Part shown: positions 25,636 through 50,500 of the stretch, one piece after another
Position numbering within the stretch: position 1 is the stretch's first letter
Layout of the letters: every line of letters starts with the position of its first letter
DNA from: Psammoneis japonica
Lineage: Eukaryota
Reading direction: 5' to 3'
NCBI GenBank assembly: GCA_008632985.1
Contig: QPGO01000337.1
Location: 1-52,558 of the forward strand
Length of the DNA: 52,558 nt
Translations under genes and position numbers: made by a program
The notes under the pieces: generated by a model
The model's database searches: none
What the model was told of the DNA's origin: nothing
What the model saw: the letters and a program-made list of their open reading frames with translations, nothing else

Positions 25636-25855
25636 AAAACCACAGCAGGATTTTTTGGAAAAGGCCAAGAAACAACTTGGCTTTAAAAGGCACCAGTTGT
25701 CATTAAAAGGCATCAGTGATTGGGAGCACATGGTTGGCAACAGTGCTTGAAAGCTTTGGAAAAGGGCAACTTTCGCCACATGTCGGCAACGATTCCTTGA
25801 CTCTGCACGCCGCCGCGGCTCAGCTGCGTTCCGTTTGACGTGGCTTGCAGTCTCC

Positions 25856-26862
25856 ATCGTGAGTCTTTGCGTCGACCATTCTTCGAGACTCACGATGGAG
25901 CGGAGAGCGGAGAGTGGTTTGACTTTCAAGGACTGAGATGAGCGCGCGGATGCAGGAAGTGGTCAGTCTTGCCTGCTCGTGACTCAGTGCTTTTCTGCGG
26001 TGAAAATTGCGTGGAGATCTGAAGATGACAAAAACGGCCCGATGACTTCCGCTGACAACAACATCAACTGCATGCAATGTGCATTCGATGTTCTGCAATG
26101 CATGAATTAACAACTTCAAGCATTGGATGCAGTTGCTTTGATGAATTTCGCCAAAATGACGCTGAGCCCTGCATTGCGTGCAAATCCATGGCACTCCGCA
26201 TGATTCGTGTTTCGTTTCGGACAACTTCCAATTCGTCAAAGCAACTGCATCTAATGCCCAAAATGGTTTGTTCAAGCATTGACGAACACAGAATGCATGT
26301 TGCATGCAATTGACATTGTTGTCAGTGGAAGTTATCTGACCGTTTTTGTCATCATTGGATTCCTGCGCAATTTTCACTGTGGGGAAGCACTGAGTCACGA
26401 GCAGGCGGGACTGACCACTTCCTGCATCCGCGCGCTTGCCTCAGCCCTTAAAAGTCAAACCACTCTCCGCTCTCCACTCCATCGTGAGTCTCGAAGAACG
26501 GTCAACGCAAAGACTCACGATGAATTAACACCTTTGAGCGTTAGATGCAGTTGCTTTGATGAATTTCGCCAAAATGACGCCAAGCCCTGTGTTGCGCACA
26601 AATCCACGGCACTCCGCACGACTCGTGTTTTGTTTCGGATGACTTCCAATTCGTCAAAGTAACTGCATGCAATGCCCAAAATAGCCAACTCAACTGTCAA
26701 CGAACACAGAATGCACATTAGGTGCAGTTCATGTTGCAGTTGGCGGAAGTCATCTGACCGTTTTTGTCATCATCGGATTCCTGCGCAATTTTCACCGCAG
26801 AAATGCACTGAGTCACGAGCAGGCGGGACTGACCACTTCCTGCATCCGCGCGCTCGCCTCAG
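25856..26862. repeat. Fold-back structure: ~240-bp inverted repeat plus partial tandem duplication
   Basis: 25856-26093 is the reverse complement of ~26283-26522; ~26101-26445 recurs at ~26519-26862; related sequence at ~47510-47572. Confidence 0.85.
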
Positions 26863-26865: not shown

Positions 26866-29800
26866 TTGGCACATTCTCGCGTGAAAAAAAAATGCGCGCA
26901 GCAATCATTCTTGGCCGTTCAGATTAGAAGCCTGCACGTGCAATCGATCCTCCTTGCTTTGCTGTGTGTTGCATGTGAACATGCACTTCTAATTCACATG
27001 CCCCCATGCCCTGAGGTGTCAAAGGATTTTCTGTCAACGGAACAACAATCAAAGGAGCTTTGGAAAACAGTGGTGGTGTTTGGGATTGGATTGCCATGTC
27101 TTTGCCGGTGGTCACACCCACAATGGCTCTCGCACAACTCGGAAATCAGGTCCCTTTTGACTCTTTGCTTTTGACACCACTTCAACAGAAACGAGAAGCC
27201 GAGCTCATTTTCCACATCAAGAATGCGGCAAAACCAAGCAGACAACATCATTCGGACCGTCGTTGTCACTGAAACAATTGAGGCCACCACACCGTGCTTG
27301 CAGCATGACAATTGCAGTGCTTGAGCAGCAAACATGAACAACCAGGGGGCAAACGACAGAGGTGGACAGGATGACAGTGAAGGAAAGTCGCAGAGGAGGT
27401 TGCAGTCATGGACAGCCATTTGCACAATCGCAAGTGGCGTGGCTGCTGTCATTGCATTGCTTGTCACACTGGGTGATGAAGAAGATGACCCTTCACCATC
27501 AGACCCTGCGCCGACGCCACCCGAGGCCCGAGCCTCCGTCTACATTTTGTGTGAGGGCGATCCGCACGGGTGCCAACTGCATTGTCCATGCAGATTGGTG
27601 ACCGAATGTTTGCACCTGCCGGCAATGAAAATCCATTCCGTGTTGACAATGTCCCACTGGGCAATCAGGCACATTCCATGGACGGCCAAATGGCCTGCAG
27701 TGCTGTTGCTTCTTCTTGCTCTGCCTCTGGTGATGGCGAGGTTGACATCGCCAACGGGAAATCTTTCTCACTCTTTTGGCAGCAAGAGCCAGGAAGTGCT
27801 GTTTGCTCTGTTTGGCTTGGCTGGTTCTCTTCCTTCTTACTTGTTCACATGGCAAAGAACACACCTTGTCATCAAAGTCAGACATGTCGATTTATGTCGT
27901 AAAAACACTCCGTACAATGTACAAACTACAAGTGGTTTGCCATTGTGTCATTCTTTCAAATGCTGCTCAATTTTTCATTCTGTCTCTGCCTGATCAACAT
28001 GCAACAGATGCGTGCAATTACCTTTCTGAAAGCATCTACCTCATGAACCATTTGTGGGCTTTTTCTTTTTGATTTCCTCTGTCGATTCAAAATGTGAATG
28101 GAAATTTTGATTCCTTTGCCTTGCATGCTTTTGTGTTGCCATGCAGGTAGAGTGAGAGTGCCGTCGTAAAACCGCAGACGTCTTTGTCGATCTTGTTGTC
28201 ACAAATGACGTCGTCGACATGCCAACATTACATTGCTGTCCCTGATCCTAATTCGAAATGTGTCGGGTTCCCTCTTGGCACCTTGTGCCTCACACTGCAC
28301 AGTCACCATGACATGTGATCAACAGAATCGCCGTCAATTGTGCCAAAGCTGTCGAACTTGGAAACGGTCATAAACTCACAAGGCAGTCAGCAAATGTGGC
28401 AATTGCTTCAGGCGGTCTCCCAGAAACGCGTCATCAGTGACACATTGGTTCTTCGTCCAGTGATTTGGCCACCTTGTGGGTGCACGACATGTGCAACACA
28501 TTGCTGTGTCAGATGCACCGAAGAAAGAAGCTCATGTGCAAACCAACCCAACTGTTGGTGTGCTGACGTGAATCACCTGATGTTGCAATCGGTCCATCAG
28601 TGTTGCCATCGCCGCCATTCGATGCTCACTGCACTGCATTTCAAAATGGACTGAAAATAATGCGCAATTGCAAGAATGAAGTTCTCTTGCAGTTTTGTTT
28701 TTCTGTGCGACTTCTCGCTCCCCTCTCACTCGAATGCACAGCAGGCCCCTCTCTGTCTCTCTGCTCTACTCTCCAGTGGCAGAGAGTGCCGTGTCCTGGC
28801 AGCCAGTGACCAGCAGCTCTATGAATCAAACATGAAAATCACATGCAACTCTTTTTAGAGCCACAGGTGCCTGGTGGCCATTCGTGCTGATGAGGGGTGT
28901 GTCATTGTCCCACTCAGCAGAAAACAGCCAATGTCTCCAGGCAGAGACCAAACTCATGCCATGGCCACCTGCGGTCTCTCGTGGCATGCTGCTTGGAGTT
29001 TTGCCGCTGCACCTGACTCACAAAGTGGCACTTCCATCCTGGGATTTTGAGAGTGACTTGTGGGTCATTGAAAAACATGAAACTGGCGCTGAGTGCACAC
29101 ACCCAGAGCTCTGATGTTTGAGGAAAAATGCAGAGATTCAGCGGACAAGGCTGACGTCTTGGCTTGTGTCAGAGTGCGGGACACACTGTGCTGGTCTCTT
29201 CACCTTGCAACTTTTGTTGATGCTCTGGCACTTGCCTTTGCAGTTGCAGCAGGCATTGCTGCCACAGCTGCCGATGATGATGCTTTTCTGTGTTTGCAGG
29301 CTGCCCACAGTTGACAACTGATTGTGCAAAAGGGCACATTGAAAAAAGCAACTTCTTTTGTCACAAGAAGACCTGTGACAGGCTGCAAAAGTTCCATGAG
29401 ACCAAGTTGCAGCCATCGTGCAAGTGACTCACATTGTGTGAAGGGTCTGTGCTGCAAGATCTGCATGGGGTGCCGCACACAGAGTGCGGTCATTGACTCC
29501 ATGTGAGGACTCAAGCTCCACATGTTTTGCCATTGCACACACATGTGCTCTGCATGAAAAAGTTTTGCAATTTTGCACAACACAGAAAATCTCTGCCGGA
29601 GCACTTTGGTGTCATTCTTGCACAGGTTGCAGCGACACGTCTCAGATGCTTCTGTGAGTGCTGTGAGGCTGACACACAGCAATTCCCAGTGGCCGGCTCC
29701 CAATCAAGTCAGGGGGCTTCAAGATTTCCTGTGCATGCTGGTGCAGGCTAGATGACACCAATCATGGATGCTGGCACACTGACAAATTTGCCAGTGTGAG

Positions 29801-31838
29801 TCACACCAATGGCATGTCATCTGGAGGAGTGTAAAAAGCACAGCAAGCATTGTTTGTGGCAAACACTGGACCTGTCATGAGCTTCCCCACTGTTTTCTGT
29901 TGCAACCCAATTTTGCATTTGGCAACTCAGCAACCTGGTCTACCTTTTCTTGCTCTTGCACCCATTCTGAGCAGAAATTGTGGCTTTTTTGCCAATCAAA
30001 AGGGACCAGTCATTTTGCACTTGTTTCACTCTTTGAAGCCAAGCTTGGTTGCTCTGCTGTTGCCATTTGTGTTCATGTTGGCTGGCGTCAATTCCACAAC
30101 AGTCAATTTTCTGCCCTTTGGAGCACTTTTCAGGAGCCAAATCTTCAAGAGTCAGGCCTGCTTGAGCAGTGTCAAAAGGAAAACTGTCCTCCTCCAGCTT
30201 GGCCAGGCAGCACAGATTGGATCACACATTTGGACCTCCCAGAGTGGGAGTTGGTTGTGGGAAGCACATGACAAGACAGCACATGATGAGGAGGATGCTG
30301 ACTCATGGAAATCATCTCAACATCAGCAGGCAGAAGCTGAGCTTGCAGCTGTGTGTGACAAATGCCAGCAGGAGCACCTTGCCAAAAGAAACAGAGAGGT
30401 TCTGATGGACACTCCATGCACAAAAGATCACATGTTGCATTCCACCACTTCCAGAATTCAGCTCAGAGTTGTGTTGCTGAGGTCAAACCATGTCCAAAGG
30501 AGAACATCAACAAAGCAAAGGGCCAAGTGCTTTGTGGCACTTGCACCATTGCCAGCTGCTTCAGTGGGGTGTCACCTTGTTCAGGTGTTTCGCCAGTGCT
30601 GGCACAGCTGGCAAAGGAGCAACAGCACTTAAAACTAAGATTTGATTTTTTGGCTTTTTGTGTTGTTCAAAATGTGATCACTCTCACACAAGTGCAACTT
30701 TAAGGCAGTGTGGCATGACTGGAGTGCTGCCTGTGGTCTTTTTGGCTCAGCAACAATTCACCACTTCACATGGGTGGATGCAGCACAACATTCCAGCCCA
30801 GGTTTGTTGAAGAATGTGCAAAAGCAACCCGAGCAAGATTGCTGCCAAGTCAACCCAACATGTCAAAGCCACAAAGCTGCACATGATGCTGCACAGTTTG
30901 AAGTTTCCAGTTGCTCCAGCTCTTGATCACAGGATGAAGGAACTGATGCAATGCAAGGAAACCTGCAAAAAATGACAGAACCTGTTTGATGGTGCTTTTG
31001 CATTTGTTGTTCAAAGTGAGCAACTCCACAGTCAAACAAGTCAATCTTTTGGCACACACAGTTGATCCACTGTGCCTGAGGTTCCTTGGTTGCATGTGGC
31101 ATCACTCTGCAAATGGCATCTGCAATGCATTCTGTGCAACAACTTTTTCCTCACAGCATGCCAGCTGTCTTGATGATGTTTCTCTTCCACAGAAGAAAGA
31201 AGTGTTGAGATGTGTGCACAATGAAGGCTCATCCACCTTGCAAAGTTGCTGAAGTTGTTTGAAGTTGTCAGCGGGAATGCACGGGCAAGCATCCAGCATG
31301 TCAATCGCCTCTGCCAGCAAGCATGTGTTCAGGGCATCCAACATGACAGAGGCATCATGCTGGTTTCAGTCAGAAGTGGAGGTTCAAGTTGAAGCCTGCT
31401 TGGTGCATTTGCAACTGACTTTTTGTGTTTCTTTGCACAGCGCAATTCATGGCCACATTCTGCACCTTGTGCAAGCCCCCATCTGACATTGTGCTGCATG
31501 TTGAATGCCCCATTTGTCAAATTTTTGTGGTCAATGCATGCAACTGTCTGGTGACCAAGGAGCGCACCTCAAAACTCCTCAAGTGACCATGTTTCCATGA
31601 TTTTCAAGCAACTCACATCCGCTGTGGGTGCAGACAAGCTGAGTGCATCACTCAGCTTGCAGCTGCAAAATGCCACTGGCTTGTTTTCATGAGATGTTGC
31701 TGCTCCCAGCTGAAACTTGTCTGAAGCATCAGCGTGTGTGTCTCAACGCAAAAAAAAGTGTCTGGGTGAGTCAGGAGGGCCAACACCTTTTTTCATGGAC
31801 AACTGTGTGATGACATGGCGTTGGTGGCTGTGCATGTG
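26866..31838. repeat. ~5-kb direct repeat, copy A (copy B at 47581-52558)
   Basis: Colinear from ttggcacattctcgcgtgaaaa to ggacaactgtgtgatgaca; paired, near-identical ORF translations in the track. Confidence 0.95.
27334..27825 (+). pseudogene. Frameshifted copy of a small single-pass membrane protein gene carried in the 5-kb repeat
   Basis: WTAICTIASGVAAVIALLVTL helix, Pro/Asp linker, then the same domain as 48053-48559 continuing in ORF 27570 after a frameshift. Confidence 0.5.
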
Positions 31839-32016: not shown

Positions 32017-32097
32017 NNNNNNNNNNNNNNNNNNNNNNNNNNNNNNNNNNNNNNNNNNNNNNNNNNNNNNNNNNNNNNNNNNNNNNNNNNNNNNNNN
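32017..32097. other. Assembly gap (81 N)
   Basis: Run of n. Confidence 0.99.
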
Positions 32098-32827
32098 TTG
32101 TCCAACTGTTTCAGCAAATGGCAGGCACAACAATGTTGGCTGAAGTCAGAAGAACAAGACTTTGCAGTGGCTTCATCAGTGGCTGGCTGCTGTTGTTTGC
32201 GTGGTGGGAGCTGCTGCACTAAAAAGATCCAAAGGAGGGTGGATGAGTTGATTCAAATGATTTGATTCAAGTTGCACCATCTCTCTGTCTCTCTCCCTCT
32301 TTCTCAATGGCCTTTGTGCTCACAATCTGGCAGAATGAAACTGGGGGGCCAGTGCAGCCAATTCTCCATCAAGTGCAACAAACAAGCAAGGTGGCCAATG
32401 CAGGGCCACTCAATGGGACTTTGCCCATGCTGCAAGGTCAACAGCAAGGCACAACAGCATTGGCCAAAGTCAGAAGTGAGGCTTCTCTGTGGTGGCTTCG
32501 TCATCAGCCAGCAGGTGTTGCTGATGTGGTGGAACAAGCTGTTGTGTTAAAAAGATCCAGGTGGGAGGGGACTGGTTCTTGTGCCATCTTGTTCCCTCTC
32601 TCTTGTGCTCTCTCTCCAGCTTTCTCTCTCTCTGTCTCTGTCTCTCTCATCAGGCTTTCCACTTGCATTCCAGCAGGACAAAGCAGGGGGGGCTGTTGGC
32701 AGTGTGGAGGACATGGCAGGAAAAAAACAGCCAAGGCTTTGCAAGCTCTCTCTCTCTCTCTTTGTGGCCAACATGTGAGTGACAGGCAAGCCTCCCAGGG
32801 ATGCCGTTTGGCATGCCCACCTTGATG

Positions 32828-32996
32828 TGACAGACATCCGAGATGGGGAGCACACTCCCTTCTGTCGGACAGACTGGCACAGACAGCATGGAGAGATCCG
32901 ATGATCTCTCCTTTGCTCACTTTCTTTCTCATCTAGTGCATGATTGTCATCTGTCCTAGACATCCGTTAGATTGTCCCGACACCACCAGTCTGTGA
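32828..32996 (+). repeat. 5' LTR
   Basis: tgacagacatccgagatgggg...ccagtctgtga; aligns without gaps to the 3' LTR once the MITE is removed. Confidence 0.93.
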
Positions 32997-33006
32997 GGTC
33001 ATGAGC
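32997..33006 (+). other. Putative primer-binding site ggtcatgagc (ggttatgagc-type half-tRNA-Met PBS with TA->CA)
   Basis: Directly abuts the 5' LTR; resembles the GGTTATG(G/A)GC PBS of Copia elements. Confidence 0.6.
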
Positions 33007-33197
33007 AGCAGTGCACTGTTCCTCTTCCTCTGTGCTCCTCTGTTGCAATGCCAGCTGTGTGATTTGGCAACTTTTTCTTCGTTGAAATCGTCGTCATTGT
33101 CACAGCTGTTTTTTCACCTCTCGATTTGTGATCGGACAGCCACTGCAGAACACATGCCAGAGCTCTGCGCAGAAATTTGATTTTTTCCCACGCAACC

Positions 33198-35289
33198 ATG
33201 GTGAACAAAAATCAAAACGCCGTCGATTTGACCATGATCAAGTCAGTGCTGGTTGTCTTCAACCCTCAGCATCACTTGCCTGATGCCCATCATCACCTGA
33301 ACGTCCTTCATTCTGATGAGATGCCTGCTCCTGAAGAACTTCTGGATGGATTTGCTTCTCAAGGCCTCAAGAGCAATGCTGTTGCCACTCTCCATCACAA
33401 GATCGTTCATGACCTTGTCATCCCCAAGGCCACGCTAACTGAAGATCTTGCGCAGATTGGCCCAATTGTGGACAAAGCTCCTCTCTTTGCAGCTGCTCCT
33501 GAAGCTCCTCCGGTTTGTCTGAACCTTGCCAATCTCAAGAACACTGTGATCAAGGCAATTTCAGATGGTCAAGATGCCATGACGATCTGTGTTGAGACTG
33601 TGTTTCTCTTCTTCCGCCCTGATTTCCCGTCCTTTGCATGTTGGGATGACATGTCTGACACTCCTTGTGCACAGTCATCCCAAACCTCAAGCTCTGCATC
33701 CCTGCCAGTTGCCACCACAGGTCCTGCTCCTGAAGACTTTGCTGAGGCCTTAGCTGCTCATTTGCCTGGTCCAAAACAGTTTGAGCAAGCCCTGACAAAT
33801 GCATTGAAGACATCTGCTCTTTGCAGCAGCATCTCCTGCACCATCTGTCATGACCACTGCTGGCGTGGCTTCTTCCTCAACTGCTGCCAGTGCTTCACAC
33901 ACCTTTGATCCAAAAGGACTTCCAAAGGATGCACTGGCCCACTGTCAACACAAGGAAGCCAGGAAAGCAGTGCCAGGGAAATCACTGGCACCCTGCAAGT
34001 CTGGAAACCTTTGTTGCGAAGATGGCGCTGAGCATCTAATCCTCACTGATGGTTCTCTCTTTGTTCATTGCATTGACTGGGATGCAAAGTCTTTCCTTTG
34101 TGATCCTCTCACTTGTGACGACATCTCTCCTCAAGGAATCCATGCGTGGCACACCACTGCAACCCAACAGGCCTCGGCTTGTGGCATGTGTGTGCACCCT
34201 CTGTGGTGTTTTGTCAAGGATGGTGGAAACTGGGGTTTCACATGTGGCAATGATTCAACCGATGATCTCCCTCTCTGGATGACCGCACCACTTGACAGAA
34301 TGAAGCTGACTGTCTTCCAGTGCATTCAGAAAGTTGGAATCTTTCCAGCAGACTCCAAGTGCCCTGACATCATTTGTCAATGCCATGGTGATGGACATGC
34401 TGCCATCAAGATGATCCTCTTTGACATCTTGACGATGTGGACAAAGTGTCCATGTGAGTTGATCAAGAGCCATCCACACCAAAACAATCTTACAATCCTC
34501 AGCTGCTGTGCTCTGTTCAGAGACTGTCTCCAGCTGCAAGCTGTCATCTCCAATGTTGATGCTTCTCTTGATGACCCTGGTGAGCCAGACATTTTTCTAA
34601 GCAATGCTCGCCATGGCAAGCGCCTTCACCGTAAAACAGTGGATGCCTGGGAAGACAAGAACAAACAACACAAGTTCACACAGAAGAAGATTGTTGAAAC
34701 TGTCAGTGCGATTCTCAAGGAACCGGACAGCCCTGCTCTTTGCATCAAGGACCCTCCAAAACATCCTCCACGTCATCTCCACAACTCGCCTGCCCCTTCT
34801 CTCACAGCTCCCGTTCAAGGTCTTGACTTGCTTCCCAAAGATGAAGTCTCTGCTCTGCCTCCAGTGATTGAGGAGACTCCAAAGGAAACTGAGCCTCCTG
34901 CTGCAGAAGAACCTGTGGACACTGTGGAGTGCTTTGTGAATGAACTTGCCACTGTGGATGTTCCCACAGATGATGATGCACAGGCCCTCCATGGCATCTA
35001 CAAGGCCTGCATCTACAGGATCAAGTCCTCTCCTGCAATTGCACAGACCCGTCCATGTGTTGTTTGTGGTGACAGCCACTTGTTCCATGAGTGTCCTGCA
35101 TTGAACAATGCTGAGCACCTGCGCACCCATCTCATTCGATTCTCCCAGTTCCTCCAACGTGATCAGCATGCTCGTGATGCACTCAAGTCTGTCACGGCCA
35201 AGAAAGATTTTTCCTGGGGCCATTGTTGTGTTTGGATGAACAATGCCGCCCATCTCCCTCTAATCCGAAAATTCCTGCAAGCGGGGTAA
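33198..35289 (+). pseudogene. gag: Copia gag, frameshifted
   Basis: ORFs 33177-33908 and 33850-35289; zinc-knuckle-like CVVCGDSHLFHEC near 35056-35095. Confidence 0.75.
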
Positions 35290-35480
35290 CTGTGAAAGAG
35301 GGTCCAACCAACTTGTTGCCTGCCGCTGATGTTCCTCTTTCACGTGTGTCATTTGCTGACCTCCTTTCAGGCTCGATGAAGGCTGGCACTCCGGATCCCT
35401 AGACGATTCCAGATGATGACCCTGACAATCCCAATCAGGGGAGGGAACTAGACCCTTCTACACAAGATGCTGATGTCCCT

Positions 35481-38400
35481 TTGCCCGCTGATCAAGACCA
35501 AGAATTTGAGTGCCTTGATGTGACCAGCACCCAGCATTTGTCACCCCTGTGCCATGCGCATCTCTCTCTGATTTTTTCTCCCCCGGAGTCACCTGCAACC
35601 TTTGCATCCTCAGCCACTCCAGTCATCCCCATCAATCATGTGCTTCATGATTCAATGATGTGTCATGCACAGATTGATGCTGGTGCTTGGGCATCCTGCA
35701 CAGGGGACAAGAACCTTCTTCATGCCTGTGCTCCATTTGGACCGGATGACCCTTGTCCTTTGAAGATGCTTCCTGCTGCTGAAGGCTCTGATGCGGTCCC
35801 TCATGGCTTTGGTTGTTTGCAAGTGCCTGCACACAATCCTGAAGGTTTCCTTCTTGCACGTGCCTTTTGCCATCCCAGCCTGCGTTCCACTTTGATTGAT
35901 GAACGTGATTTTGCACGGGCTTCTGGGTTTAAACCTCAGGCCATTCGATGCGAGCTCCTTGAGAAGACACGTGCTCATGGCACTTGCACTTGCACCGCTT
36001 CAACTGACACTCAAGAAGCAGTTGTCCATGGCATCCTCTGACATGGCAAGGCATTTGCACAACCCCTGGTTCCCCCGTCTGTGCCTCACATCTCTTTGCC
36101 ATCAATGACCCCTGACCTGTCCTTGGTTGATGACATTGATGATGCATGTCAACGTGCAGTTTTTTGTGTCAATGTTCAACAAAGTCCATCTGACCCCTTG
36201 CTGATGGATGCTGAGTTGTTCTTGATGCAGTGTGATTCGACTGCCCACATCTTGCCACCGCCATCTGCCCCTGCTCCGGTCCGCTCTCTCAAGGTTGAGA
36301 CTGAACGTCTTCCATGGCACCAATGACTTGGACATCCCAGCGACCACTGCTTGTGCAATGCTCACAAGCACATCAAGGGCATCCCGAAGTTCCAACATGC
36401 CAATCCCGTCCTTGACATTTGTCCTGCATGTGTCCAAGCCAAGCAAGTCAAGACTCCTGCTGGACCAAACACGACTCGAAAGGCAACCCAGCCACACCAA
36501 GGCCTCACTGTGGATTTTGCTTTTGCTGGCCAAGCTTCCAAGAATGAAGATCGCAAGTCTGGTTGTCTTGGACACAATGGCGAAACGTGTTGGATCACTG
36601 TCTGCGATCACCACACACGGATGCTCCATGGAGTGGCAAGGGTTTCCAAAGCCAGTCCTCTCAAGTGGCTCCACCGATTCTTGGATCGACATTCACCAAA
36701 TTGTCATGACAAATGTGTGTTTGTGGACCAAGGTGGGGAATTGAACAAAAATCTCAAAGTTCGTGACCTCTTTGAATGAGAATTTCAGTGTGACATCTGT
36801 CCTTCTGGCACTGGCACATCCAACCAATGTGGACCTGTTGAACACTCACATTTGGCTGTTGAAAACGCGATTCGTGCGATTTTAATTGGCGCCAACCTTC
36901 TGATTCGATTCTGGCCCCATGCTTTTTACCATTGCCTCCATGTCAAGAATGCTGCTCCTGCAAAAGATCAAGATGCAGCACCCATCACTCTTGCTGCTGG
37001 AAAGGTTGAAGATTTCACTGCTCTGAAGACTTTTGGATGTCGAGCATGGTCCAAACGGTCCGCTGCCCGTTCTGCTGCTTTCCGGACCAATTCCAAGAAG
37101 GGCGCATTCCTTGGCTGTCTCCCAAACACCCTGAAAAATGTCATGTGGTGGGATCCTGAGACTGACAAAGTCAAGATGGCCAAACATGTGCACTGCGATG
37201 AAGGTGTGAATGATCTGTTTTTTGATCAACTTCCTCCCAATGCCATCCATTTGCAATTTGCAACATGTGGAAAATGGACAACCTTTTCCAGCTGAAACAC
37301 AGGACACAACCGCTCCTGTGTTTGCCTCTTTGTTGAATCCTTTTGCTGCGACTGTTGCATGCACCATGAAACATCCCCCAAAGGATCCCACCTGTGGTTT
37401 TGGATTTTCCCAGTGTGCGCCAATGGACCATGTCTGTGCATCAGAAATCAAGCAGTGCAGTCCTGCGGCCTCTTTGTTGTCCTCCCTCCATGCTGCTTGC
37501 AACAAGATTGTGGGTGCATGCATTGTTTCTGTCAACAAGCGTGAAGTCTTTGCTCCAATGGATGCTGAAGAGGCTTTGTCTCAGGTCTTCCATGACGAAA
37601 TTCCGACCTTCGAGAGATTGCTTTTGCACCAGAACAATGGTTGGATTCTTGCACCCTTGATGAAGCATTTGAGGAAGCGGAGTTGTTTGAACCTGACTCC
37701 ATGGAGGATGACTCCCATGTTCCTGAACTCACCTTGGAGGATGTGCAATCTGTCACAGCCCTGCTCTGTCCTGATGATGATTTCTCAGATGAGGCTGTCC
37801 CAATGGATGTTTTCCATGCTCACCTCAATGCGATTAGCTCCCGCTCTCTCACTCTGGAGGAGGCTGCTCTTGACCGCCTCACTCGTGCCAAGCTTCATAA
37901 ACTTGACACATGGCCTGAATGGGAAGAAGGTGAGCAGCGTCAATTGGAGCAATTTTGTGCTCTTGGCATGTGTGGCCCTCCCCAACCACGTCCCCCTGGA
38001 GCAAATGTCGTGCATCTGCATTGGGATTGCATGGTGAAGCCAGATGGACAACGTCGTTCTCGGCAATGTGGAGATGGTTCCAAGTCGGCAATGCCGGCCT
38101 TGCATGAGCTGACTTCCACCTGTTTGTCATGTGTGGAACGTTCCATCGAAAAGATGTTCTCTTTGCTCTCAGCGCAGCTGTGTTGCATCATGTCTTTGGA
38201 GGTGATGCTCGGGATGCCTGTGCTCATTCTCCTGGCCCTTCACAGCCGGTTTTCATTGCTGTTGATGACGCATGTGCTGCCTGGTGTGAAAAGAGATTTG
38301 GCAAGAAAGTGCCCCACCACTGTGTTCTCCCGCTCAAGCATGCTCTTCAAGGCCACCCTGAAGCTGGTGTCCTCTGGGAAAAGCACATCAATTTGATTGC

Positions 38401-39603
38401 AACAGGTGCAAAACTTCTTTTCCGCAATGCCGCTCATGACAAGTGCATCTGCTCTGGTGAATGTGATGGTGTCAAGGTCCTTCTGCTCCATCAGGTCGAT
38501 GATTTTGCACTTGCTTGTCCCTCCAAAAAGATTGCAAAAGACATCTGCAACCACATTGGCAAGGCTCTCCAGATGGAAAATGAAGACACTCCTCCGTTCA
38601 AGCATTTGGGCTTGGTTGCTGAATTCAATGGCATTGGCATAATCCAAAATGATGGCTCGATTGCTGTCAATGTTGCCAGTTGCCTTGATCGTGTTTTCAA
38701 GACCCATGGCTGGGATGCTCCCACTGCAAATGAATCTGAGTCTGATTTCAAAGCTGCACCTGTGCCAGTTGATTGCATCCCTGACCTGTGTGCCGCTGAA
38801 GGTCCTGCAGAGGGTGCTCCTGAGTGTGATGTTCTCTCCGAGTCCCAGGGTTTCTCTTGCCGATCTGTCCTGGGTGAGTTGGTCTTTGCTCGCTCGTGTT
38901 GTCGTTTGGATGTTGGTTGTCCCATTGTTGCCTTGTCCAAGTTTTCCAAGGTTCCAGCTGAGATTCATTGTGATTCACTCAAGTGTGTGGCCAAGCATTT
39001 GCGGTGCACCAAACATTGGGGGCTGATGCGCAAGAAGTCCAAGTGTGATCCTGGTCTGCCTCCTCGCGATTTTGAATGGCTTGAGGATGATCCATCTCTT
39101 CCGGACTTCCCTCATGCTGATGACCTCTTCCAACTCCTTGGCTTCATTGATGCAGCACATGCCAGTGAACTGTGGCATTGCCGCTCCACTGCCAGATGTG
39201 CGCATGTCCTTGCTGGCGCTGCAATTGATTGTCATTGCCGTGCACAAATGATTGCAGCTGCCAGCTCCACAGAAGCTGAATTTCTCGCAGCTGTCACTGG
39301 TGCAAAACAGACCCTGCACTTCCGCATGGTTCTGGAAGAATTGGGCTTTCCTCAATGTGATCCTGCTCCCTTGCACATTGACAACTCCTCTGCCACCCAG
39401 ATGATCAATGACAAGGTGCCTGCGGAGCAATCCCGCCATGTTGACATTCAACATTTTGCTGTCCAAGACTGGCATGACACAGGCAAGACATTGTCACTCA
39501 ACATGTCCTGGGTGTCATTGACCCTGCTGATGTGCTGACCAAGGCTGTGGGCTGGGTGCTTCATTCCCACCATGCCCGCCATTTGATGGGACACTGCTGT
39601 TGA
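35481..39603 (+). pseudogene. pol: Copia pol (protease, integrase, RT, RNase H) with stops and frameshifts
   Basis: PR QIDAGA; IN WHQ*LGHPS, CPACVQAK, VDFAF, VDQGGEL; RT ALQGHPEAG, QVDDF; RNase H DAAHA, STEAEF, IDNS, RHVDI, LTKAVGW. Confidence 0.93.
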
Positions 39604-39733
39604 TTGTCATCGGGTTTTGTGGATTGAGTCTTGGGTGTGTCTCTCTTTTCTTTGTTTTGTTCTTTGCCATTCTGGTCCTCTCTTTTTATTCGGATCGTCT
39701 CTTTCTTTCTTGTTGAGCATTGCATTGCTCATC

Positions 39734-39742
39734 AGGGGAGGG
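39734..39742 (+). other. Polypurine tract aggggaggg
   Basis: Immediately precedes the tgaca start of the 3' LTR. Confidence 0.85.
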
Positions 39743-40175
39743 TGACAGGCCTGTTCCAGCTCCTGGTGCTCCGAGCGGGTTCCATTCCCATCATTTGGCA
39801 GTTTGTGCATTTGGTGCAATTGGCTTTTTCCAAACCCGTTTTTTGCCAAATCGAGTGGCAAGTGTGCACTTTACATGCATTTTTGGGTGTACACTCACCT
39901 TTCGATTTTCGAAACGATCAAAATTGAAGGAGTTGATTGCGCCAAACTGCGCAGAAAATCGGCCTCTCGCGTGATAAAAAGCAGATCACCTGGAGCTGGA
40001 ACAGGCCGACAGACATCTGAGATGGGGAGCACACTCCCTTCTGTCGGACAGACTGGCATGGACAGCATGGAGAGATCTGATGATCTCTCCTTTGCTCACT
40101 TTCTTTCTCATCTGGCACACGATTGTCATCTGTCCCAGACATCCGTTAGATTGTCCCGATGCCACTGGTCTGCAA
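39743..40175 (+). repeat. 3' LTR, interrupted after its fifth base by a MITE
   Basis: tgaca [MITE] gaca gacatctgagatgggg...ctggtctgcaa. Confidence 0.9.
39748..40007. mobile_element. 260-bp MITE with 4-bp TSD GACA, TIR related to the elements at 17260 and 20174
   Basis: gaca|ggcctgttccagctcctggtg ... cacctggagctggaacaggcc|gaca; the 5' LTR supplies the empty site. Confidence 0.92.
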
Positions 40176-41893
40176 TGATGCCGGCATCCGGCATTCAAAC
40201 AAGCACATGACAAAACACAACCTGGTCATTCTGCTGGAAAGCAGCCCCCAACCGAGTGCCATCAGGACATGCTCCTCCAACTCCCACCCCATGCAAATGA
40301 GTGTCCTCAAGTTGTCTCTGTTTGGCATCATCAAACAAGGAGGTCTTGAAACACACATGCAGAGCTTTGGACATTTCAGCAGCAAGTGGCTTCATGATGG
40401 GAAGCACCGCTCTTTTGAGGAGAAAGCAGCAAGGCTGACAAGTGTGTCTTGTGCCGTTGCTTTGTGACTAAAGTTGCTCTGCTGTCATCACAATTCTCAC
40501 AAGGAAGGCATTTCATGTTTGCACATCATGCAATTGGAGCTTTGTGCTCACTTGTTGTCAACATGAGCTGCACTTGACTGCTTGTTGTCAATGTGTGCCA
40601 CACCTTCTGTTTTGGCTCTTTTTCAATTTTTCATTGTCACATCTGTTGTCAAATGCAGTGGTTGTGAATGGCTGTCAGCTGACAATCAAAACATGAAATT
40701 TCATGTCCTGACATTGCTGCTGTGGGTGTTTTGGCCCCATGGAGCTGGCCACAATTCACAGAAAACATGCCACCTGCACAAACTCCACGCATTTTCTGCG
40801 TGACCTTCACACAACCCATCTTCTCTGAGGTGAAGAAGCCAACAATCAGATTTTTGGCAATGACTTGACAACCACTTTTTGTTGCTGTGGGCACATTTGT
40901 TTTGTTGTTGAAGCGACAGCCTTGGGGCATGTGTGTTGCATGGGGCTTTGAGAAGACAGGCAGCAGGAGCATTCTTCTGAGAGCTTGTTTGAATTTTTTG
41001 CAGGTGTGCTGAAGAGCTGATGATGCCTCCTTTGATTTCTTGACTTCAAATGGTCCACCCCTTGCTCGCAGTGTTTGAAGTTGAGTTGCCAACTGTGAGT
41101 GAACTGCAAGCAGAGAGCCAGGCCTCATCACATTCATGCCAAAGCACAGCACCAAGAGAACACAGGAGAGCAGCTTGGGGTGGGTTGAGTTTGAAAAACT
41201 GAGCTCAGGATTGACTCATTTGAAGAAGCCATTGAAAGCAGTGGTCATGAAGAGAAAGTGGCTGGTCTGTGTGTGTTGGTTGTTTTGGAAAGGAGCAGAT
41301 TTGGCTGCTTTGGACACCAAGGCTTTGCATTCAATGCCTTTGCCTGGGTCTCTCCACTTGCCCCCCAAAGACAACAACATGTGCAGCCACAAATGTGCTC
41401 TTTTGACAAATGAAATGTGTTGCAGAAACAAACCATGGCTGCCATTGACCTGTGCCATCATGCATTTAGATGAGGGTTTGCAGATGCCATGAATGAGAAG
41501 AAGGCATCTCAAAAGAAGCAGACATCATCTTGTTCATTGTGGGTGTGAGTGTCTTTGTTGAGCGAGGCAAGATTGGTTTGTTTGGCAACAAAGCAATCAT
41601 TTTCAACCATGAGTTCTTCAGGGCATGAAATTTTTGTTGTTGTTTAAAGTGATGTCTTGGAAGTGCTTTAGATGGGAGACAACAACTGAAGTGTCGGCAT
41701 TGGCTCATTGTGGAATTCGCTCCTGCCGGGGGCAATCATTTGCGGATGGGGGGCTGCAGATTTTTGATGAGATTCCTTTTTTCTGCCGGTGTTGCCATGA
41801 GAAATTCGGACTCCTGTCCCAGCACAAAAACTCAGTGTTTTTCTACATGCACAGCTTCTGCGAGGTCCTGTGGTGGTTTAGAATGAAATTTGA

Positions 41894-44800
41894 GACGAGT
41901 TTGGAGAATCCAATCTCTGTCCCGGTTGTGGCCAAAGTTTTTTGCGAACAGCCTGCCATTGGAGACACTCACCGACGTGTTGCTCAGTTGCCCAAGAGTT
42001 GCAAACCCAAGATCTAATCCCAGATCAAAGCGACATTCCTGCCACAATGGAGGGGCCACCCAAAGAAAGCAGCAGTTCTTCCTCTTTGTCCTCTGATGAT
42101 GACGAATCCCATCCGAGGCGATCTGCTTGCAGCAGATTCCCAAGATCTTCAACGAGTGATCCAAGCAGCAGCCCCTTGTTCCCCTCCCAGGATGACGCAC
42201 CGCACGGAATGGATGACATGTCCTCCATTTCATCAAACCACAGCATGCACAGAGTTGAACTTTGAGCAATGAACGATTTGGATGTTGGCGGTGGTCAATC
42301 CTTTGCTGCAGTGTTGGACGTGACAATGGAGGAGGAAGAGGACATTCACGATGAGGATCAATGTTTGGGGATCAGGTGTGACGCTCCTGCAGAAGAGGCC
42401 TTGGCTTCTGCTCCCTCTTTGACAAATCTTGATGGAGCTTGCGCAGAGTTGTGCAAGAAGATCATGGACACATGTGGTGCTCCCCTGGAATTGTGCGATT
42501 GCATTGTTGATTTCATTGAGAGGCACACTGGCAACAGCAACATTGAGCTTGGTGCAGTTCTGCCAAGGAGAAAAGAGTTGATGCGCACCTTAACTGATCA
42601 TTTCCCTCTTCCACCCAGCGAGTCTGTTCCTGTCACTCTAGAAACCAAAAATTTCAAAACCGGTTTGCCAAAACGAATGTCAGTGCCAAGATGGGATTTC
42701 ACAAAGGTTTGGGAACAGTTTTTGCTCGATCCTCACCTGTGGTGCAGCAGAGAGAACATGGCCAATCCAGACAATCCTTTTGGGAAGTGCAAAGCAAAGG
42801 GGCCGGATGACAAGTGCCTTTTGGCGGGTGAGTGGTGCAGGCGCAGTCACGAAGAATGGACAACTGACCTGGAGAAACAATTTCTCGAGTGCAATGTCAT
42901 TTGCCTCGACAAGACTGGCAGGACACAAGGGATGGGATCATGTTGCGGAGAACCAGTGATCATGACCTCTGCGCATGTTGCCTTCAACAAATGGTCAGAC
43001 AAGAGTGTCTGGAAACCAATTGGTTGTCTCCCGGATTTGGAAAAGATGTCATCATCTGCGGCAAAGAATCTCTCAAACAATCGCAAGGCAGAGAAGGGAC
43101 GCTCGTCAAGAGACTGCCACACTTGCTTGCGTGTTGTTTTGGAGCCACTTTTGGAAGTCATGAGAAAAGGAGGCATGAAAACATGTGTGCGACGGGGGGA
43201 TGAGATGCGACACCTCCACGTAATCCCACTGATCGTTCTGATCACAGGAGACACAAAAAGCGGCGACTGTCTCGTCAGACGATGCGGAGGTCACAACTGT
43301 CGTCAACATTGCTGTCGTTTCTGCCTCACTGGCTTCAACAAACTGGATGACCCATGGATTGAATGCAAGTTTGTCTGAGGACTGGATCTCCACCAAGTGC
43401 AAACTAAGGCCAACGACGACAACAGATCAGACCAAGAAAGGAAGCACTGGTTGGGCATCTTGCATTGCCTCAAGCAACACAACGCACCTGCCAACTGTCT
43501 TTTTGAGGCAGACTTTGGCGCACAACCATGCGGTGTTGCCCTTGTGACAGCAAGTGACATGATGCATCTCTTTGAAAATGGCACCTTGAAAAGGGCAATC
43601 AATTCATTTGTAGACAGCATGACACCTGTGGTTGCAAGTGAGGTGGACAGCACAGTGGAAAGGATTTTCAGCAATCACCGGTCAATTTGCAAAGCATCCT
43701 TTTTGTGAACAAACTTCAAAGGAGGAGCAACGTCGCTTGCCTTCCTCAACTCTCACCACTGGGCTGGAATGGCTTTTGTTTTCTACCTTCTCCTGTCAAC
43801 CAGCGAGGGACGAAACGCATGTGAGTCATGCTTCCTTGACAAGGACGCAGATGAACCCATTGTTCCAGAGAATCGCAAGATGCCCAAAGCAAACTTTGAG
43901 AGTTGCTGCCAACCCAGTGAGCACTTGGACTCTGACAATGAAAGGTCGGAGGAGTCTGAAGAGGGTGACTGGGACGAAAATGAGGATGAGAAAGAGGAGA
44001 GTGAGGCTGAGGATGGTGATGACAACCAAAAAAAGAAAAAACACAAGGGAAAAAGACTCAACTGCAGCGTCCGGCAATTCATTCAATTGCTCGAGGACCT
44101 TCTTGTCTTCCACGCATGGCACAGGCTGGGCGATCCACCCATCACAAGCGCAACTCCCAGTTCATCTGTTCAGAAAACAAACAAGAAAATCCGTCTCCTC
44201 ATTGACTGGACAGTGCAACTCGTCCCGCGAACAGAAGGATGCAGGTGGAAGCTTCAAAAGCTTCATGAAACACTCCATCTCCCAGTGTTTCTTTGTTGTT
44301 GCCGACATGCGATGAACTTTGACGCAGGGTTGGGGGAATGTCTCTTGAAAGACTTTTTCAAGCTGCCATCATCTGCCGCACAACAATGCAACCTTGACAG
44401 TTTTCTGAAGCAGGTCGTGTCGCGCATGGAGGACCAAATGAGGCTCAACGCCGCAATTTCAGCTGACAGTTGGATTTTGCCAACTGGGAAAAAGGAATCA
44501 TCAAGAGTCAGGACAGACAATCACACGCTGGGAGGAAGCACGTTCACTCTCACCTGCAACCAAGGGATTGGTGCTGTGACGTTTGAGTGGAGCAGCTTGC
44601 ATGCTCGTTGCCAAGTTCATCCTGTGTCACCAAACTTCATGTCGGAAAAGTGGGAGGATTGTGTTGGTGAAGACAGTGAAAACACACACCTGACTTGCAA
44701 GACAGAGTTTTGCAATGCAAGCGGGAGGGATGCGCACCGTGCGCACCCCAATTGCAAAAGTGAAGGACCATGGCATGACTTTGCCCATGTGACCTTTGGC

Positions 44801-45277
44801 ACACGAAAGGGCGATCAACAGCTTCCCTCCCGTTTGCTGTGTTTCTTCGAACAGGAAGACACAGGATCGATTTTTGCAGTGGTCCATCCAACTGCTCATC
44901 AAGCTGACCAGAGAACTGTGAGGCAACGGTGTCAGCACACAGACTTGGTCAGTTGCTGGCAGCTTGATCACAAACGAAACAACTGGCTTTCAACGCCTGA
45001 GAAGACTCAGCACTCACCTGAGTTACGTGTTGTCCCCATCGAAGCAATTGGGGACAATGTTTTGGTTTATGAAGAATGTCCAGGAGCAGCAGAAGCGCAA
45101 GAAAAGGCCCCATTTGTTTGGGCTGCACAGGACAGAAGGAAGTGTTGGTCAGATTTGTTTCTAAAACAGGATGCGCGTGTCAATCTGTCATTCACTCACA
45201 GTGATTTCCCAACTCTTCTTGCAAACATGATGAATTTGATCCTTTCAGAATTGGCAAAGTCATTGTGGTGCATGTGA
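41894..45277 (+). pseudogene. Plavaka-type (EnSpm/CACTA-related) transposase; one reading frame broken by three TGA codons
   Basis: ORFs 41942, 42269, 43397 and 43769 share one frame. Motifs ICLDKT, EPVIMT, WKPIGCLP, RDCHTCL..VLEPL, ITGDTKSGD, DMMHLFENG, *TNFKGG, QKLHETLH, HRAHPNCKSEGPWHDF. Element ends not found. Confidence 0.8.
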
Positions 45278-47580: not shown

Positions 47581-50500
47581 TTGGCACATTCTCGCGTGAA
47601 AAAAAAAAATGCACGCAGCAAAGAATCATTCTTGGCCGTTCAGATTAGAAGCCTGCAAATGCAATCGATCCTCCTTGCTTTGTGTGTGCAGCACTGCATG
47701 TGATGATGTTCTTCTAATTCATGTGCCCCCATGCCCTGAGGTGTCAGAGGATTTTCCATCAACGGAATGACAGTTGAGGAGCTTTGGAAAATGGTGGTGG
47801 CATTTGGGATTGGATTGCCATGTGCAGTGTGTCTTTAGTCACACACAACAGCTCTCGCATGACTTGGAAATCAGGTCCCTTTTGACTTTACTTTTCACCA
47901 CTTCAACAGAAACGAGAAGCCGAATTCATTTTCCACATCAAGAACACGGCAACACCAAGTGGACAATGTCTTCGGACCGTCATTGTCGCTGAACCAATTG
48001 AGGCCACCACACCATGCTTGTGGCACAACAACGCAGTGCTTGAGCAGCAAACATGAAACAATCAGGGGGCANAGGTGGACAGGACAATGGTGAAGGAAAG
48101 TCGTGGAGGAGGTTGCAGTCATGGACGGCCATTTGCACAATCGCAAGTGGCGCGGCTGCTGTCACTGCATTGCTTGTCACACTGGGTGATGAAGATGACC
48201 CTTCACCATCAGACCCTGCACCGATGCCACCCGAGGCCCCTGCGCCAACGCCACCCAATGCCCGAGCCTCCGTCCACATTGTGCATGGAGGCGATTCGCA
48301 CGGGTGCCCACCGGCACTGGATTTGTCCATGCAGATTGGTGACCGAGTGTTTGGACCTTGTGAAAATCCATTCCGTGTTGACAATGTCCCGCTGGGCAAT
48401 CAGGCATGTTCCACAGATGGCCAAACAACCTGCAACGCCATTGACTTTTCTTGCTCTGCTTTCAGTTGTGGCAAGGTTGACATTGCCAATGGGAAATCTT
48501 TCTCACTCTTTTGGCAGCAAGAGACAGGAAGTGTTGTTTGCTCCATTTGGCTCAACTGATTCTCTTCCTTCTTGCTTGTTCACCAATGTGCATGAGAAGA
48601 TTGCTGCAGGAAAGAACACACCTTGTCATCAAAGTCATGTCGACATGTGTCCGAAAAAAAAAAGACACACACCGCACAACATGCAAACTGCAAGCAGTTC
48701 ACAGTTGCACCATCCTTTCAAATGCTGCTCAATCATTCATTCCATCTCTGCCTGATCAACATGCGCAATTGCCTTTCTGAAAGCATCCACCTTGTTGACC
48801 ATTTGGGGGCTTTTCCTTTTTGATTCCTCTGTCGATTCAAAATGCGAATGGAAATTTTGATTCCTCCGCCTTGCACACTTTTGTGTTGCCACTTAGAGCA
48901 TGGGTGCCATCGTAAAACCGTTGACGTCTTTGTTGATCTTGTTGTCGTAAATGACGTCATCAACATGCCACCATTGCGTTGCTGTCCCTGATCCCAACTC
49001 GAAATGCATCGGGTTCCCTCTTGGCACCTTGTGCCTTTCATCCTGCACAGTCACCATGACATGTGATCAACAGAATTGCCATCAATTGTGCCAAAGCTGT
49101 CGAACTTGGAAACGGTCATAAACTCACAAGGCAGTCAGCAAATGTGGCAATTGCTTCAGGCGGTCTCCCAGAAACGCGTCATCAGTGACACATTGGTTCT
49201 TCGTCCAGCAATTTGGCCACCTTGCATGGGCACACGACATGCGCAACACATGCACCAAAGACTGAAATCATGTGCAAACCAACCCAACTGTTGGCGCGCT
49301 AATGTGGAATCACCCAATGTTGCAACTGGTCCATCAGTGTTGCCATCATCGCCATTCGATGCTCACTGCACTGCATTTCAAAATGGGCTGAAAATGCGCA
49401 ATTGCAAGAATGAAGTTCTCTTGCAGTTTCATTTTTCCCGTGTGACTTCTTGTTCCTCTCTCACTCGAATGAACAGCAGGCCCCCTCTCTGTCTCTCTGC
49501 TCTGCTCTCCAGTGGCAGAGAGTGCCGTGTCCTGGCAGCCAGTGACCAGCAGCTCTGTGAATCAATCATGAAAATCACACACAACTCTTTTTAGAGCCAC
49601 AGGTGCCTGGTGGCCATCCGTGCTGATGAGGGGTGTGTCATTGTCCCACTCAGCGGAAAACAGCCAATGTCTCCAGGCAGAGACCAAACTCATGCCATGG
49701 CCACCTGCGGTCTCTCCTGGCATGCTGCTTGGAGTTTTGCCACTGCAGCTGACTCACAAAGTGGCACTTCCATCCTGGGATTTTGAGAGTGACTTGTGGG
49801 TCATTGAAAAACATGAAACTGGTGCTGAGTGCACACACCCAGAGCTCTGATGTTTGAGGAAAAATGCAGAGATTCAGCGGACAAGGCTGACGTCTTGGCT
49901 TGTGTCAGAGTGCGGGACACACTGTGCTGGTCTCTTCACCTTGCAACTTTTGTTGATGCTCTGGCACTTGCCTTTGCAGTTGCAGCAGGCATTGCTGCCA
50001 CAGCTGCCGATGATGATGCTTTTCTGTGTTTGCAGGCTGCCCACAGTTGACAACTGATTGTGCAAAAGGGCACATTGAAAAAAGCAACTTCTTTTGTCAC
50101 AAGAAGACCTGTGACAGGCTGCAAAAGTTCCATGAGACCAAGTTGCAGCCATCGTGCAAGTGACTCACATTGTGTGAAGGGTCTGTGCTGCAAGATCTGC
50201 ATGGGGTGCCGCACACAGAGTGCGGTCATTGACTCCATGTGAGGACTCAAGCTCCACATGTTTTGCCATTGCACACACATGTGCTCTGCATGAAAAAGTT
50301 TTGCAATTTTGCACAACACAGAAAATCTCTGCCGGAGCACTTTGGTGTCATTCTTGCACAGGTTGCAGCGACACGTCTCAGATGCTTCTGTGAGTGCTGT
50401 GAGGCTGACACACAGCAATTCCCAGTGGCCGGCTCCCAATCAAGTCAGGGGGCTTCAAGATTTCCTGTGCATGCTGGTGCAGGCTAGATGACACCAATCA

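Follow-up and report, generated by a model that had tools for sequence, protein, structure and literature searches.

Mutation of mobile and foreign DNA at a single dinucleotide has been described in the chlorarachniophyte alga Bigelowiella natans, whose mutation-accumulation lines are reported to undergo A-to-G and T-to-C changes only at TpA, at a rate of ~6e-7 per site per generation (Mettrop et al., bioRxiv 10.64898/2026.01.13.699255). The targets reported there are integrated giant-virus and virophage DNA, the TpA-depleted coding sequences are enriched in reverse transcriptase (RT) and DDE domains, and an ADAT2-like adenine deaminase has been proposed as the agent (10.64898/2026.01.13.699255). 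In other systems, amphioxus ADAT2 deaminates both adenine and cytosine in DNA, at GAA and TCG (PMC10354150), and in diatoms CG methylation is directed mainly at transposons (PMC9998398). This report deals with contig QPGO01000337.1 of the diatom Psammoneis japonica (assembly GCA_008632985.1, forward strand), the whole analyzed stretch of 52,558 nucleotides being referred to as the window, and in particular with a 7.35-kb Ty1/copia element at 32828-40175 whose coding region is split over several frames.

The evidence examined makes it probable that two dinucleotide-specific mutation processes act on silenced transposon DNA, far faster than ordinary substitution. Process (a) would convert TpA into TpG or CpA through an A-to-G change on either strand, favoring 5'-TAY (Y, pyrimidine) and running nearly to completion, and process (b) would convert CpG into TpG or CpA, partially and nearly free of context. 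For process (b) the best explanation would be that 5-methylcytosine is deaminated at methylated CpGs; by analogy with other diatoms, it would depend on methylation. The TA process matches a phenomenon described once before, in another lineage. In the available parts of the literature, including PMC2806351, PMC9998398, and PMC4504042, TpA/CpG hypermutation of diatom transposons was not found. The study that described the diatom CoDi elements makes a single passing mention of CpG, in the context of methylation at the Blackbeard locus, and its matching passages do not mention degenerate copies or mutation as a sequence change (PMC2806351); likewise, no mention of diatoms, CpG or trinucleotide context was found in the accessible text of the B. 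natans preprint.

Differences Between the Two LTRs

The two long terminal repeats (LTRs) of the element were compared after excising a 260-bp miniature inverted-repeat transposable element (MITE) from the 3' LTR. They then align over 169/169 nt without gaps and differ at 15 nt in 10 dinucleotides (LTR positions 12, 53-54, 72, 108, 110-111, 114, 130, 154-155, 160-161, and 167-168), namely three CG/TG, five CA/TG, one TA/TG, and one CA/TA. All 15 differences are transitions, none is a transversion, and each lies inside a pyrimidine-purine (YpR) dinucleotide, with no difference elsewhere. The sequence-only reading, from which this work started, had given these same counts and classes, with no indels apart from the MITE, and they were reproduced exactly, as were its LTR ends, which read TG...GA in the 5' LTR and TG...AA in the 3' LTR instead of TG...CA; the subterminal dinucleotide is itself a reciprocal TG/CA site. 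Three CpGs are common to both repeats. As YpR dinucleotides cover 46% of LTR positions, random draws of 15 positions almost never give an all-YpR outcome (2 of 200,000), and at least five adjacent pairs appear in 0.3% of draws, chance is excluded as the cause of the pattern.

According to the mechanism proposed, each LTR would have been hit independently after both had been made identical. Opposite-strand hits on the same dinucleotide in the two repeats would leave one LTR with CA and its partner with TG, a hit in one LTR only would yield CG/TG, TA/TG or TA/CA, and the same hit in both would be invisible. The 15 transitions put the LTRs at a Kimura two-parameter (K2P) distance of 0.098, with no differences outside YpR, which bears out the earlier suggestion that the rate is far elevated and that LTR dating would overestimate the age of the element.

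Other repeat pairs of the window display the same type of exchange. The two copies of a 5-kb dispersed repeat differ at 293 sites, including 41 reciprocal CA/TG, 53 CG versus TG/CA, and 20 TA versus TG/CA, the remaining differences being 72 other transitions and 66 transversions, and the same YpR exchange pattern is found in two palindromes, a tandem array and several smaller pairs. Of this set the LTR pair is the cleanest and the most recent, with 15 YpR changes and none of any other kind.

Direction of Change

The direction of the changes was examined at conserved protein positions, using 404 positions with at least 60% agreement among aligned homologs (the top 60 of 307). None of 22 conserved Tyr residues is kept in the copia element; 14 are now Cys (TGY), 4 His (CAY), 2 Arg, and 2 Phe. 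Conserved Thr has become Ala at 11 of 23 positions, with T preceding the codon in 10 of the 11, and conserved Ile has become Val at 7 of 23, with T preceding in all 7; among the retained Thr and Ile codons, 0 of 19 are preceded by T. For Arg, 13 of 30 conserved residues are kept and 10 have changed to His (6), Gln (2), Trp (1) or Cys (1), as expected of CpG decay. The control residues were mostly kept (His 17/19, Trp 9/9, Cys 4/6, Gln 9/12). Because Tyr, Thr, Ile, and Arg change in this manner and His, Trp, Cys, and Gln are stable, TG and CA are to be regarded as end states and not as sources. Judging from these sequence comparisons, the conversion of TA into TG/CA is virtually complete and that of CG into TG/CA partial. 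The result agrees with the sequence-only reading, which took reciprocal CA/TG pairs as independent opposite-strand hits on one TA or CG: at conserved protein positions TA and CG go to TG/CA and not the reverse, and the excess of reciprocal pairs recurs in the 5-kb duplication and other repeat pairs.

Sequence Context of TA and CG Loss

Survival of a site was defined as its density in depleted DNA of the window relative to genic DNA. Ordered by the base 3' of the A, TA survival is 0.038 for T, 0.092 for C, 0.162 for G, and 0.279 for A; sites that read TAY on both strands (RTAY; R, purine) survive at 0.016, one-sided sites at 0.134 and YTAR sites at 0.35. ATAT is absent from the depleted DNA, against 49 occurrences in the genic part, which is the shorter of the two. 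The favored target of the TA process is 5'-TAY. The TAs remaining in the LTRs (CTAG, CTAG, and TTAG) all belong to the slow class, and they include both half-mutated sites (TA/TG and TA/CA). Among CpG contexts survival varies little (0.35-0.6), with the exception of GCGC (1.23).

Two further candidate rules were rejected. A preference for TCG, as in basidiomycete mutation resembling repeat-induced point mutation (RIP) or in BjADAT2, does not fit the survival of NCG sites (0.39-0.63, with TCG at 0.41). Neither does a sense-strand, transcription-linked bias: Tyr codons with TAY on the sense strand only have given 10 Cys and 0 His, those with TAY on both strands 4 Cys and 4 His, so that the apparent bias is due to the 3'-neighbor (TAY) rule, Cys and His being even once context is counted and strand rates being equal in the metagenome family described below.

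Ancestry of the Reciprocal Sites

A homogeneous independent-hit model with two parameters, fitted to surviving sites (p(CG) = 1/3, q(TA) = 1/2), was rejected as well. The LTRs contain 5 reciprocal pairs and the 5-kb repeat 41, where about 0.9 and 11.6, respectively, would be expected under this model. Since it underpredicts reciprocal pairs, a fast, saturating class of sites is needed, for which TA sites in fast contexts are the obvious candidate; at three of the five reciprocal LTR sites the flanks would make ATAG, GTAC or ATAC. From these kinetics, and not site by site, we infer that most reciprocal LTR pairs were TA.

It could be argued that ordinary methyl-CpG decay suffices, all ten LTR sites having once been CpG and the low TpA being a matter of family composition. 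The three CG/TG sites, the three shared CpGs and the CG methylation of diatom transposons would fit such a scheme, but neither composition nor CpG decay can yield the total loss of Tyr along with the Thr-to-Ala and Ile-to-Val changes exactly after T, the TA/TG and TA/CA differences are left without account, and with p = 1/3 a CpG-only model predicts about 0.4 reciprocal pairs against the 5 observed. We consider this explanation very improbable.

An Independent copia Family from Metagenomes

Loss of most conserved Tyr residues, with Arg kept, is also seen in six further copia homologs from public protein sets; at conserved Tyr positions, pooled, they have 46 Cys, 16 His, and 17 Tyr, although some of the six may be copies of one family. 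The DNA of one such homolog, P0011, was traced to 35 microbial-mat metagenome loci (69-100% identity, some being the same sequence in different assemblies). This metagenome family, unrelated to the copia element of the window, is graded in its TpA observed/expected ratio (o/e) from 0.83 to 0.0, with CpG o/e at 0.54-0.95 throughout. TpA is not correlated with CpG (Spearman rho 0.18, p 0.35; n = 30 after 5 duplicate loci were dropped) and is inversely correlated with G+C (-0.84).

With reference to a sequence built from the eight least-changed copies, 774 of 1615 TA site-copies (48%) are changed, 424 to TG, 340 to CA, and 10 to CG, compared with 329 of 1753 CG site-copies (19%) and about 9% of the remaining positions (derived from totals). 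Other A-to-G/T-to-C changes are also in excess (1005 against 658), which may stem from TA sites absent from the reference. Per-strand hit rates by 3' neighbor are 0.29 for T, 0.32 for C, 0.15 for G, and 0.105 for A, and the two strands are alike. A 5.5-kb contig (L008) retains 4 TAs in total with CpG o/e of 0.5-0.94, and another locus (L029) has TA o/e of 0.0 and CG o/e of 0.95. The TA process is thus independent of CpG loss. In another contig of the family the depletion stops no farther than about 500 nt from where the coding region ends.

These data bear on the possibility that a single RIP-like, repeat-induced machinery mutates both CG and TA in duplicated DNA. In the window the two depletions occupy the same domains with the same sharp edges, one stretch (3001-3500) having 0 CG and 0 TA, and one ADAT2 enzyme is able to deaminate A as well as C in DNA (PMC10354150). 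However, TA has been erased with CpG kept in the metagenome copies just described, loss of TA depends strongly on sequence context and that of CG hardly does, and a 444-bp tandem duplicate as well as the many-copy MITE of the window are unaffected. A single machinery is thus regarded as unlikely, and two separate processes as the better account.

None of the metagenome loci proved to be a hypermutated copy of full length with both LTRs, and a 27-nt word from the LTR of the window element had 0 exact matches in metagenome contigs. At locus L033, an LTR-like direct repeat (2312-2494/7785-7968, spaced 5.47 kb) adjoins a partly TA-depleted copia copy; TpA between the repeats is normal and the repeats differ mostly by CpG-type changes.

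Regional Distribution and a DNA Transposon Remnant

The signature is regionally restricted. Compact diatom-type genes occupy 1-16 kb of the window, including those for a fucoxanthin-chlorophyll protein, a SET-domain protein, and adenylosuccinate synthetase (4451-5737, minus strand), whose best named relatives are diatom proteins (76-83% identity), and in this genic DNA (4-16 kb) o/e is about 0.5 for TpA, about 1.0 for CpG, and 1.1-1.4 for TpG/CpA. The left edge of the depleted domain is ragged up to about 18 kb. Beyond 18 kb, in 2-kb windows, TpA o/e is 0.02-0.24 (mostly 0.02-0.15), CpG 0.10-0.82, and TpG and CpA about 1.5-2.0. The copia element itself has o/e values of 0.06 (TpA), 0.38 (CpG), 1.80 (TpG), and 1.53 (CpA), its interior containing 23 TA and 164 CG against 430 and 436, respectively, expected from base composition. 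The small intergenic island near the left end lacks CG between 2891 and 4182 and TA between 2349 and 3625, the TA at 3625 being the only one up to 4131; each of its edges falls within one 500-nt window and normal density is back within a few hundred bases.

A consequence of the near-loss of TAA and TAG (7.0 per kb on both strands in TA-depleted DNA vs. 29.1 per kb in genic DNA) is the presence of many long open frames on both strands at 18001-52558. A Pfam examination of 75 open frames of the depleted domain returned a weak Plavaka match and three chance-level matches only.

To our knowledge, Plavaka/KDZ-like elements have been little described in diatoms. The assignment of the remnant found here is aided by its relatives, 3 of 5 long homologs tested passing the Pfam cut-off. 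At 174 consensus positions, 0 of 6 Tyr are kept (4 Cys, 2 His), along with CpG-type changes at 4 of 15 Arg, and Asp (11/11), Phe (13/13), His (8/8), and Trp (8/9) are retained. Relative to its closest relative, the environmental protein P0121 (60% identity), 14 of 18 Tyr are now Cys or His. Taking both transposons, the counts are those of A-to-G/T-to-C change confined to TpA: conserved Tyr is lost at every position (0/22 and 0/6 kept), and 17 of the 18 Thr-to-Ala and Ile-to-Val changes of the copia element follow T.

The signature is therefore independent of reverse transcription and, as it is carried by a DNA transposon remnant, a non-coding island and local duplications, the process acts on chromosomal DNA. 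The earlier claim that the changes arose in place and not during reverse transcription gains indirect support from its presence in the DNA transposon, the palindromes, the tandem copies and the island. The competing view would place editing within the retrotransposition cycle, as A-to-I editing of RNA or deamination of cDNA, the LTRs differing from insertion. Host deaminases edit LTR retroelements in vertebrates (PMC4866542), and the Tyr outcomes are mostly of the sense-strand type (Cys over His by 14 to 4 in the copia element and by 46 to 16 in the six homologs). Against it, the strand bias vanishes under the 3'-neighbor rule, rates per context are equal on both strands in the metagenome family, and RNA editing is unable to make two LTRs differ; neither strand asymmetry nor confinement to RNA/cDNA elements, as in APOBEC/ADAR-type editing, was found. 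Such editing is accordingly held to be improbable, and mutation of integrated DNA is preferred.

The MITE, Timing, and Read Data

That a MITE lies inside the 3' LTR, as the sequence-only reading had it, is substantiated by its inverted ends, by its 4-bp GACA target duplication (39744-39747 and 40008-40011) and by the contigs of sequencing run X1, which break exactly at 39748 and 40007. It has 16-nt terminal inverted repeats, its arms (39749-39771/39984-40006) are 91% complementary, and X1 contigs on it far outnumber those on the copia element. The MITE contains 12 CpGs (o/e 0.79), the adjacent 340 nt having a CpG o/e of 0.30, and its TpA o/e is 0.18. Since the MITE retains its CpGs, CpG decay took place at least largely before its insertion; its TpA is already low, so the TA process cannot be dated by it. 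The 444-bp tandem duplication among the genes (11571-12455, 98% identical) has normal TpA and CpG.

Run X1 contains 59% of sampled 31-mers of the window, two further runs come from the same sample, no RNA run appears among those listed, and 4082 placed contigs of X1 include many pieces related to the window. In low-depth flanks (40225-40293, 40409-40799, and 32500) the sole X1 contig differs at at least 17 sites, mostly CG/CA, CG/TG, and reciprocal CA/TG; these differences could reflect independently hit alleles or strains, or paralogues. An assembly or base-calling artefact at modified bases might be suspected from the differences between window and X1 contigs at several flanking YpR sites and from the incomplete share of 31-mers, but the genes next to the domain, on the very same contig, are normal, graded TA-specific loss is present in independent metagenome assemblies made by other projects, and the changes are consistent with substitutions at the coding level across whole genes. 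An artefact is hardly credible, and genuine mutation remains the explanation adopted.

Candidate Mechanism

As has been proposed for B. natans, process (a) may be the work of an ADAT2/TadA-like deaminase that turns adenine in DNA into inosine (read as G) and serves genome defense; we hold this to be possible, though somewhat short of an even chance. More tentatively still, diatoms would possess a DNA-editing defense in which adenine of silenced mobile DNA is deaminated at 5'-TAY, and this defense would be homologous to the TpA hypermutation of a chlorarachniophyte. If true, this defense acts copy by copy up to complete TpA erasure, removing all Tyr codons and TA-containing stops, adenine-deaminase immunity is ancestral to at least the stramenopile-rhizarian part of SAR (Stramenopila, Alveolata, Rhizaria), and it works beside, yet independently of, CpG methylation.

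Several observations weigh against the interpretation favored here. The polarity of the changes, as deduced from sequence, is based on homologs at most 51% identical. The only ADAT2 for which DNA editing has been demonstrated, that of amphioxus, prefers TCG and GAA, not TAY (PMC10354150), and TCG is not preferentially lost in the window. The CpGs of the MITE and the untouched 444-bp duplicate indicate that the processes are not set off by repetition as such and give no clear sign of still acting at this locus. Rate classes must be invoked to account for the reciprocal pairs, and the context rule gives a reason for such classes and not a proof of them. Some TA/TG differences may be new TAs that arose by ordinary G-to-A change, since two sites in a three-way comparison read TG, TA, TG. 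Taking the LTR pair alone, editing of unintegrated cDNA may still be conceived. Finally, the absence of background change asserted by the sequence-only reading holds for the LTR pair but not for the element interior, where 18 of the 23 best-supported private differences are listed as non-YpR, in a list that is biased against variable sites.

The copia Element and Other Features of the Window

The element is probably a dead Ty1/copia LTR retrotransposon of the diatom CoDi-like type, lying in a transposon-rich and presumably silenced domain of a diatom chromosome. It possesses two direct LTRs, a 5-bp target-site duplication (TSD), and an RVT_2-type RT downstream of the integrase domain, which is the Ty1/copia domain order. 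The RVT_2 match at 38324-38704 is weak (E 7.8e-5, 22.8 bits vs. a cut-off of 31.6); the RT region nevertheless has 307 homologs (best identity 51%, E down to 1e-137), the majority with PF07727, and the closest named proteins to the element are from Nitzschia, Cylindrotheca, and Fragilaria. The frames upstream of the integrase matched 0 Pfam families, and their place in a copia-type layout is presumed from position. Past 32996 no convincing tRNA complementarity was recognized as a primer-binding site. The features of the window are listed in Table 1.

Table 1. Coordinates of the copia element, associated repeats, and depleted regions in the window.
Feature	Position	Strand	Basis and remarks
Sharply bounded island between two genes (1.7 kb, old tandem repeats inside)	2350-4130	.	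TA/CG mapping
Transposable element-rich domain, TpA/CpG-depleted, TpG/CpA-enriched	16500-52558	.	Dinucleotide o/e; reaches window end
5-kb dispersed direct repeat, copy 1	26866-31838	+	91% identical to copy 2
TSD TGATG, left copy	32823-32827	+	Identical 5-mer at 40176-40180
5' LTR, 169 nt	32828-32996	+	Direct repeat; corrected alignment
Two overlapping open frames upstream of integrase, hypermutated	33132-35289	+	Presumed gag and upstream region
Integrase C-terminal SH3-like domain (PF25597, SH3_retrovirus)	36999-37205	+	E 1.3e-9, above curated cut-off
RT and RNase H region	37617-39592	+	Three frames, two frame shifts
Polypurine tract AGGGGAGGG	39734-39742	+	Abuts 3' LTR; putative function, from position
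3' LTR, first 5 nt (TGACA)	39743-39747	+	Sequence reading, LTR alignment
260-bp MITE inside 3' LTR, after its 5th base	39748-40007	.	Terminal inverted repeats and TSD
3' LTR, other 164 nt	40012-40175	+	LTR alignment
TSD TGATG, right copy	40176-40180	+	Matches left copy
Plavaka/KDZ-like DNA transposase remnant	42266-45274	+	Pfam Plavaka E 1.3e-4, below cut-off
5-kb dispersed repeat, copy 2	47581-52558		Truncated by window end; 20.7 kb from copy 1

The copies of the 5-kb repeat, which has no Pfam match, bracket the copia element and the Plavaka-like remnant, and a partial third copy occurs at 16564-17255. Near-perfect hairpin palindromes at 20363-20864 and 25855-26522 (arms of 214 nt and 293 nt, spacers of 74-82 nt) are situated in the depleted domain, within which a patch of normal TA density is present at 17148-17639. 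An open frame of 1175 codons (12894-16421) contains a 15-bp repeat array (15186-15839, minus strand) that codes for Pro/Ser/Thr-rich sequence and causes a strong local GC skew. Assembly gaps comprise 81 N at 32017-32097 and 1 N at 48072.

Implications

Should the processes operate as proposed, mutational defense, known since 2026 from one rhizarian alga, would be extended to the ecologically weighty diatoms. The TAY context rule, the saturation and the action on both transposon classes are new here, and the TAY signature offers a concrete handle for finding the enzyme. Graded families of the P0011 type allow kinetics and context to be measured without experiments. For genome analysis, dating by LTR divergence and Kimura-type repeat landscapes are invalid in such genomes, because a K2P distance of 0.098 arises without any ordinary substitution. 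In addition, TA-free DNA yields spurious long frames liable to be called orphan genes or Cys/His-rich, Tyr-free proteins, and public protein sets already contain such products (for instance P0089, without any Tyr).

Comparison with Known Systems

The copia element resembles the CoDi elements in its Ty1/copia domain order, short LTRs, and 5-bp target duplication (Maumus et al., 2009, PMC2806351); unlike them, it is at most 51% identical to any named protein, and a place in a CoDi lineage would be tentative. The CpG component behaves as the decay of methylated CpG does, with CG changing to TG/CA, a CpG deficit in transposon DNA (o/e 0.1-0.5, with 0.38 in the element, vs. about 1.0 in genes), and little context dependence. 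It departs from such decay in its high ratio to background, with 0 non-YpR changes in the LTR pair.

RIP in fungi is a C-to-T process that typically turns CpA into TpA and hence raises TpA. Like RIP, the processes considered here would kill mobile DNA by dinucleotide-specific transitions made in place, leaving sharp composition islands (PMC7296669). Unlike in RIP, TpA is destroyed, the more heavily mutated copies are richer in G+C (rho -0.84 between TpA and G+C), and the 444-bp repeat and the MITE are spared; TpA-raising C-to-T change in duplicated DNA was thus not what was found.

The closest parallel is the hypermutation of B. natans, with which the TA process shares A-to-G/T-to-C change at TpA, with TpG or CpA as the product depending on the strand, confinement to mobile or foreign DNA, a lasting TpA deficit with enrichment of CpA and TpG that is over-represented in RT and DDE genes, and an episodic character, which we count as a likeness to the window (10.64898/2026.01.13.699255). 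The evidence in B. natans is experimental (mutation-accumulation lines) and that in the diatom comparative only. Unlike the chlorarachniophyte, the host here is a diatom, from another branch of SAR, and mutation has struck non-coding repeats as well as two transposons, one a copia retrotransposon and the other the remnant of a DNA transposon. The depletion has come close to saturation (TpA o/e 0.05, compared with 0.45 in the viral region of B. natans), follows a rule of TAY over TAR, and is overlaid by CpG decay, the last two being features that set the diatom locus apart from the B. natans system as reported in the accessible text of the preprint.

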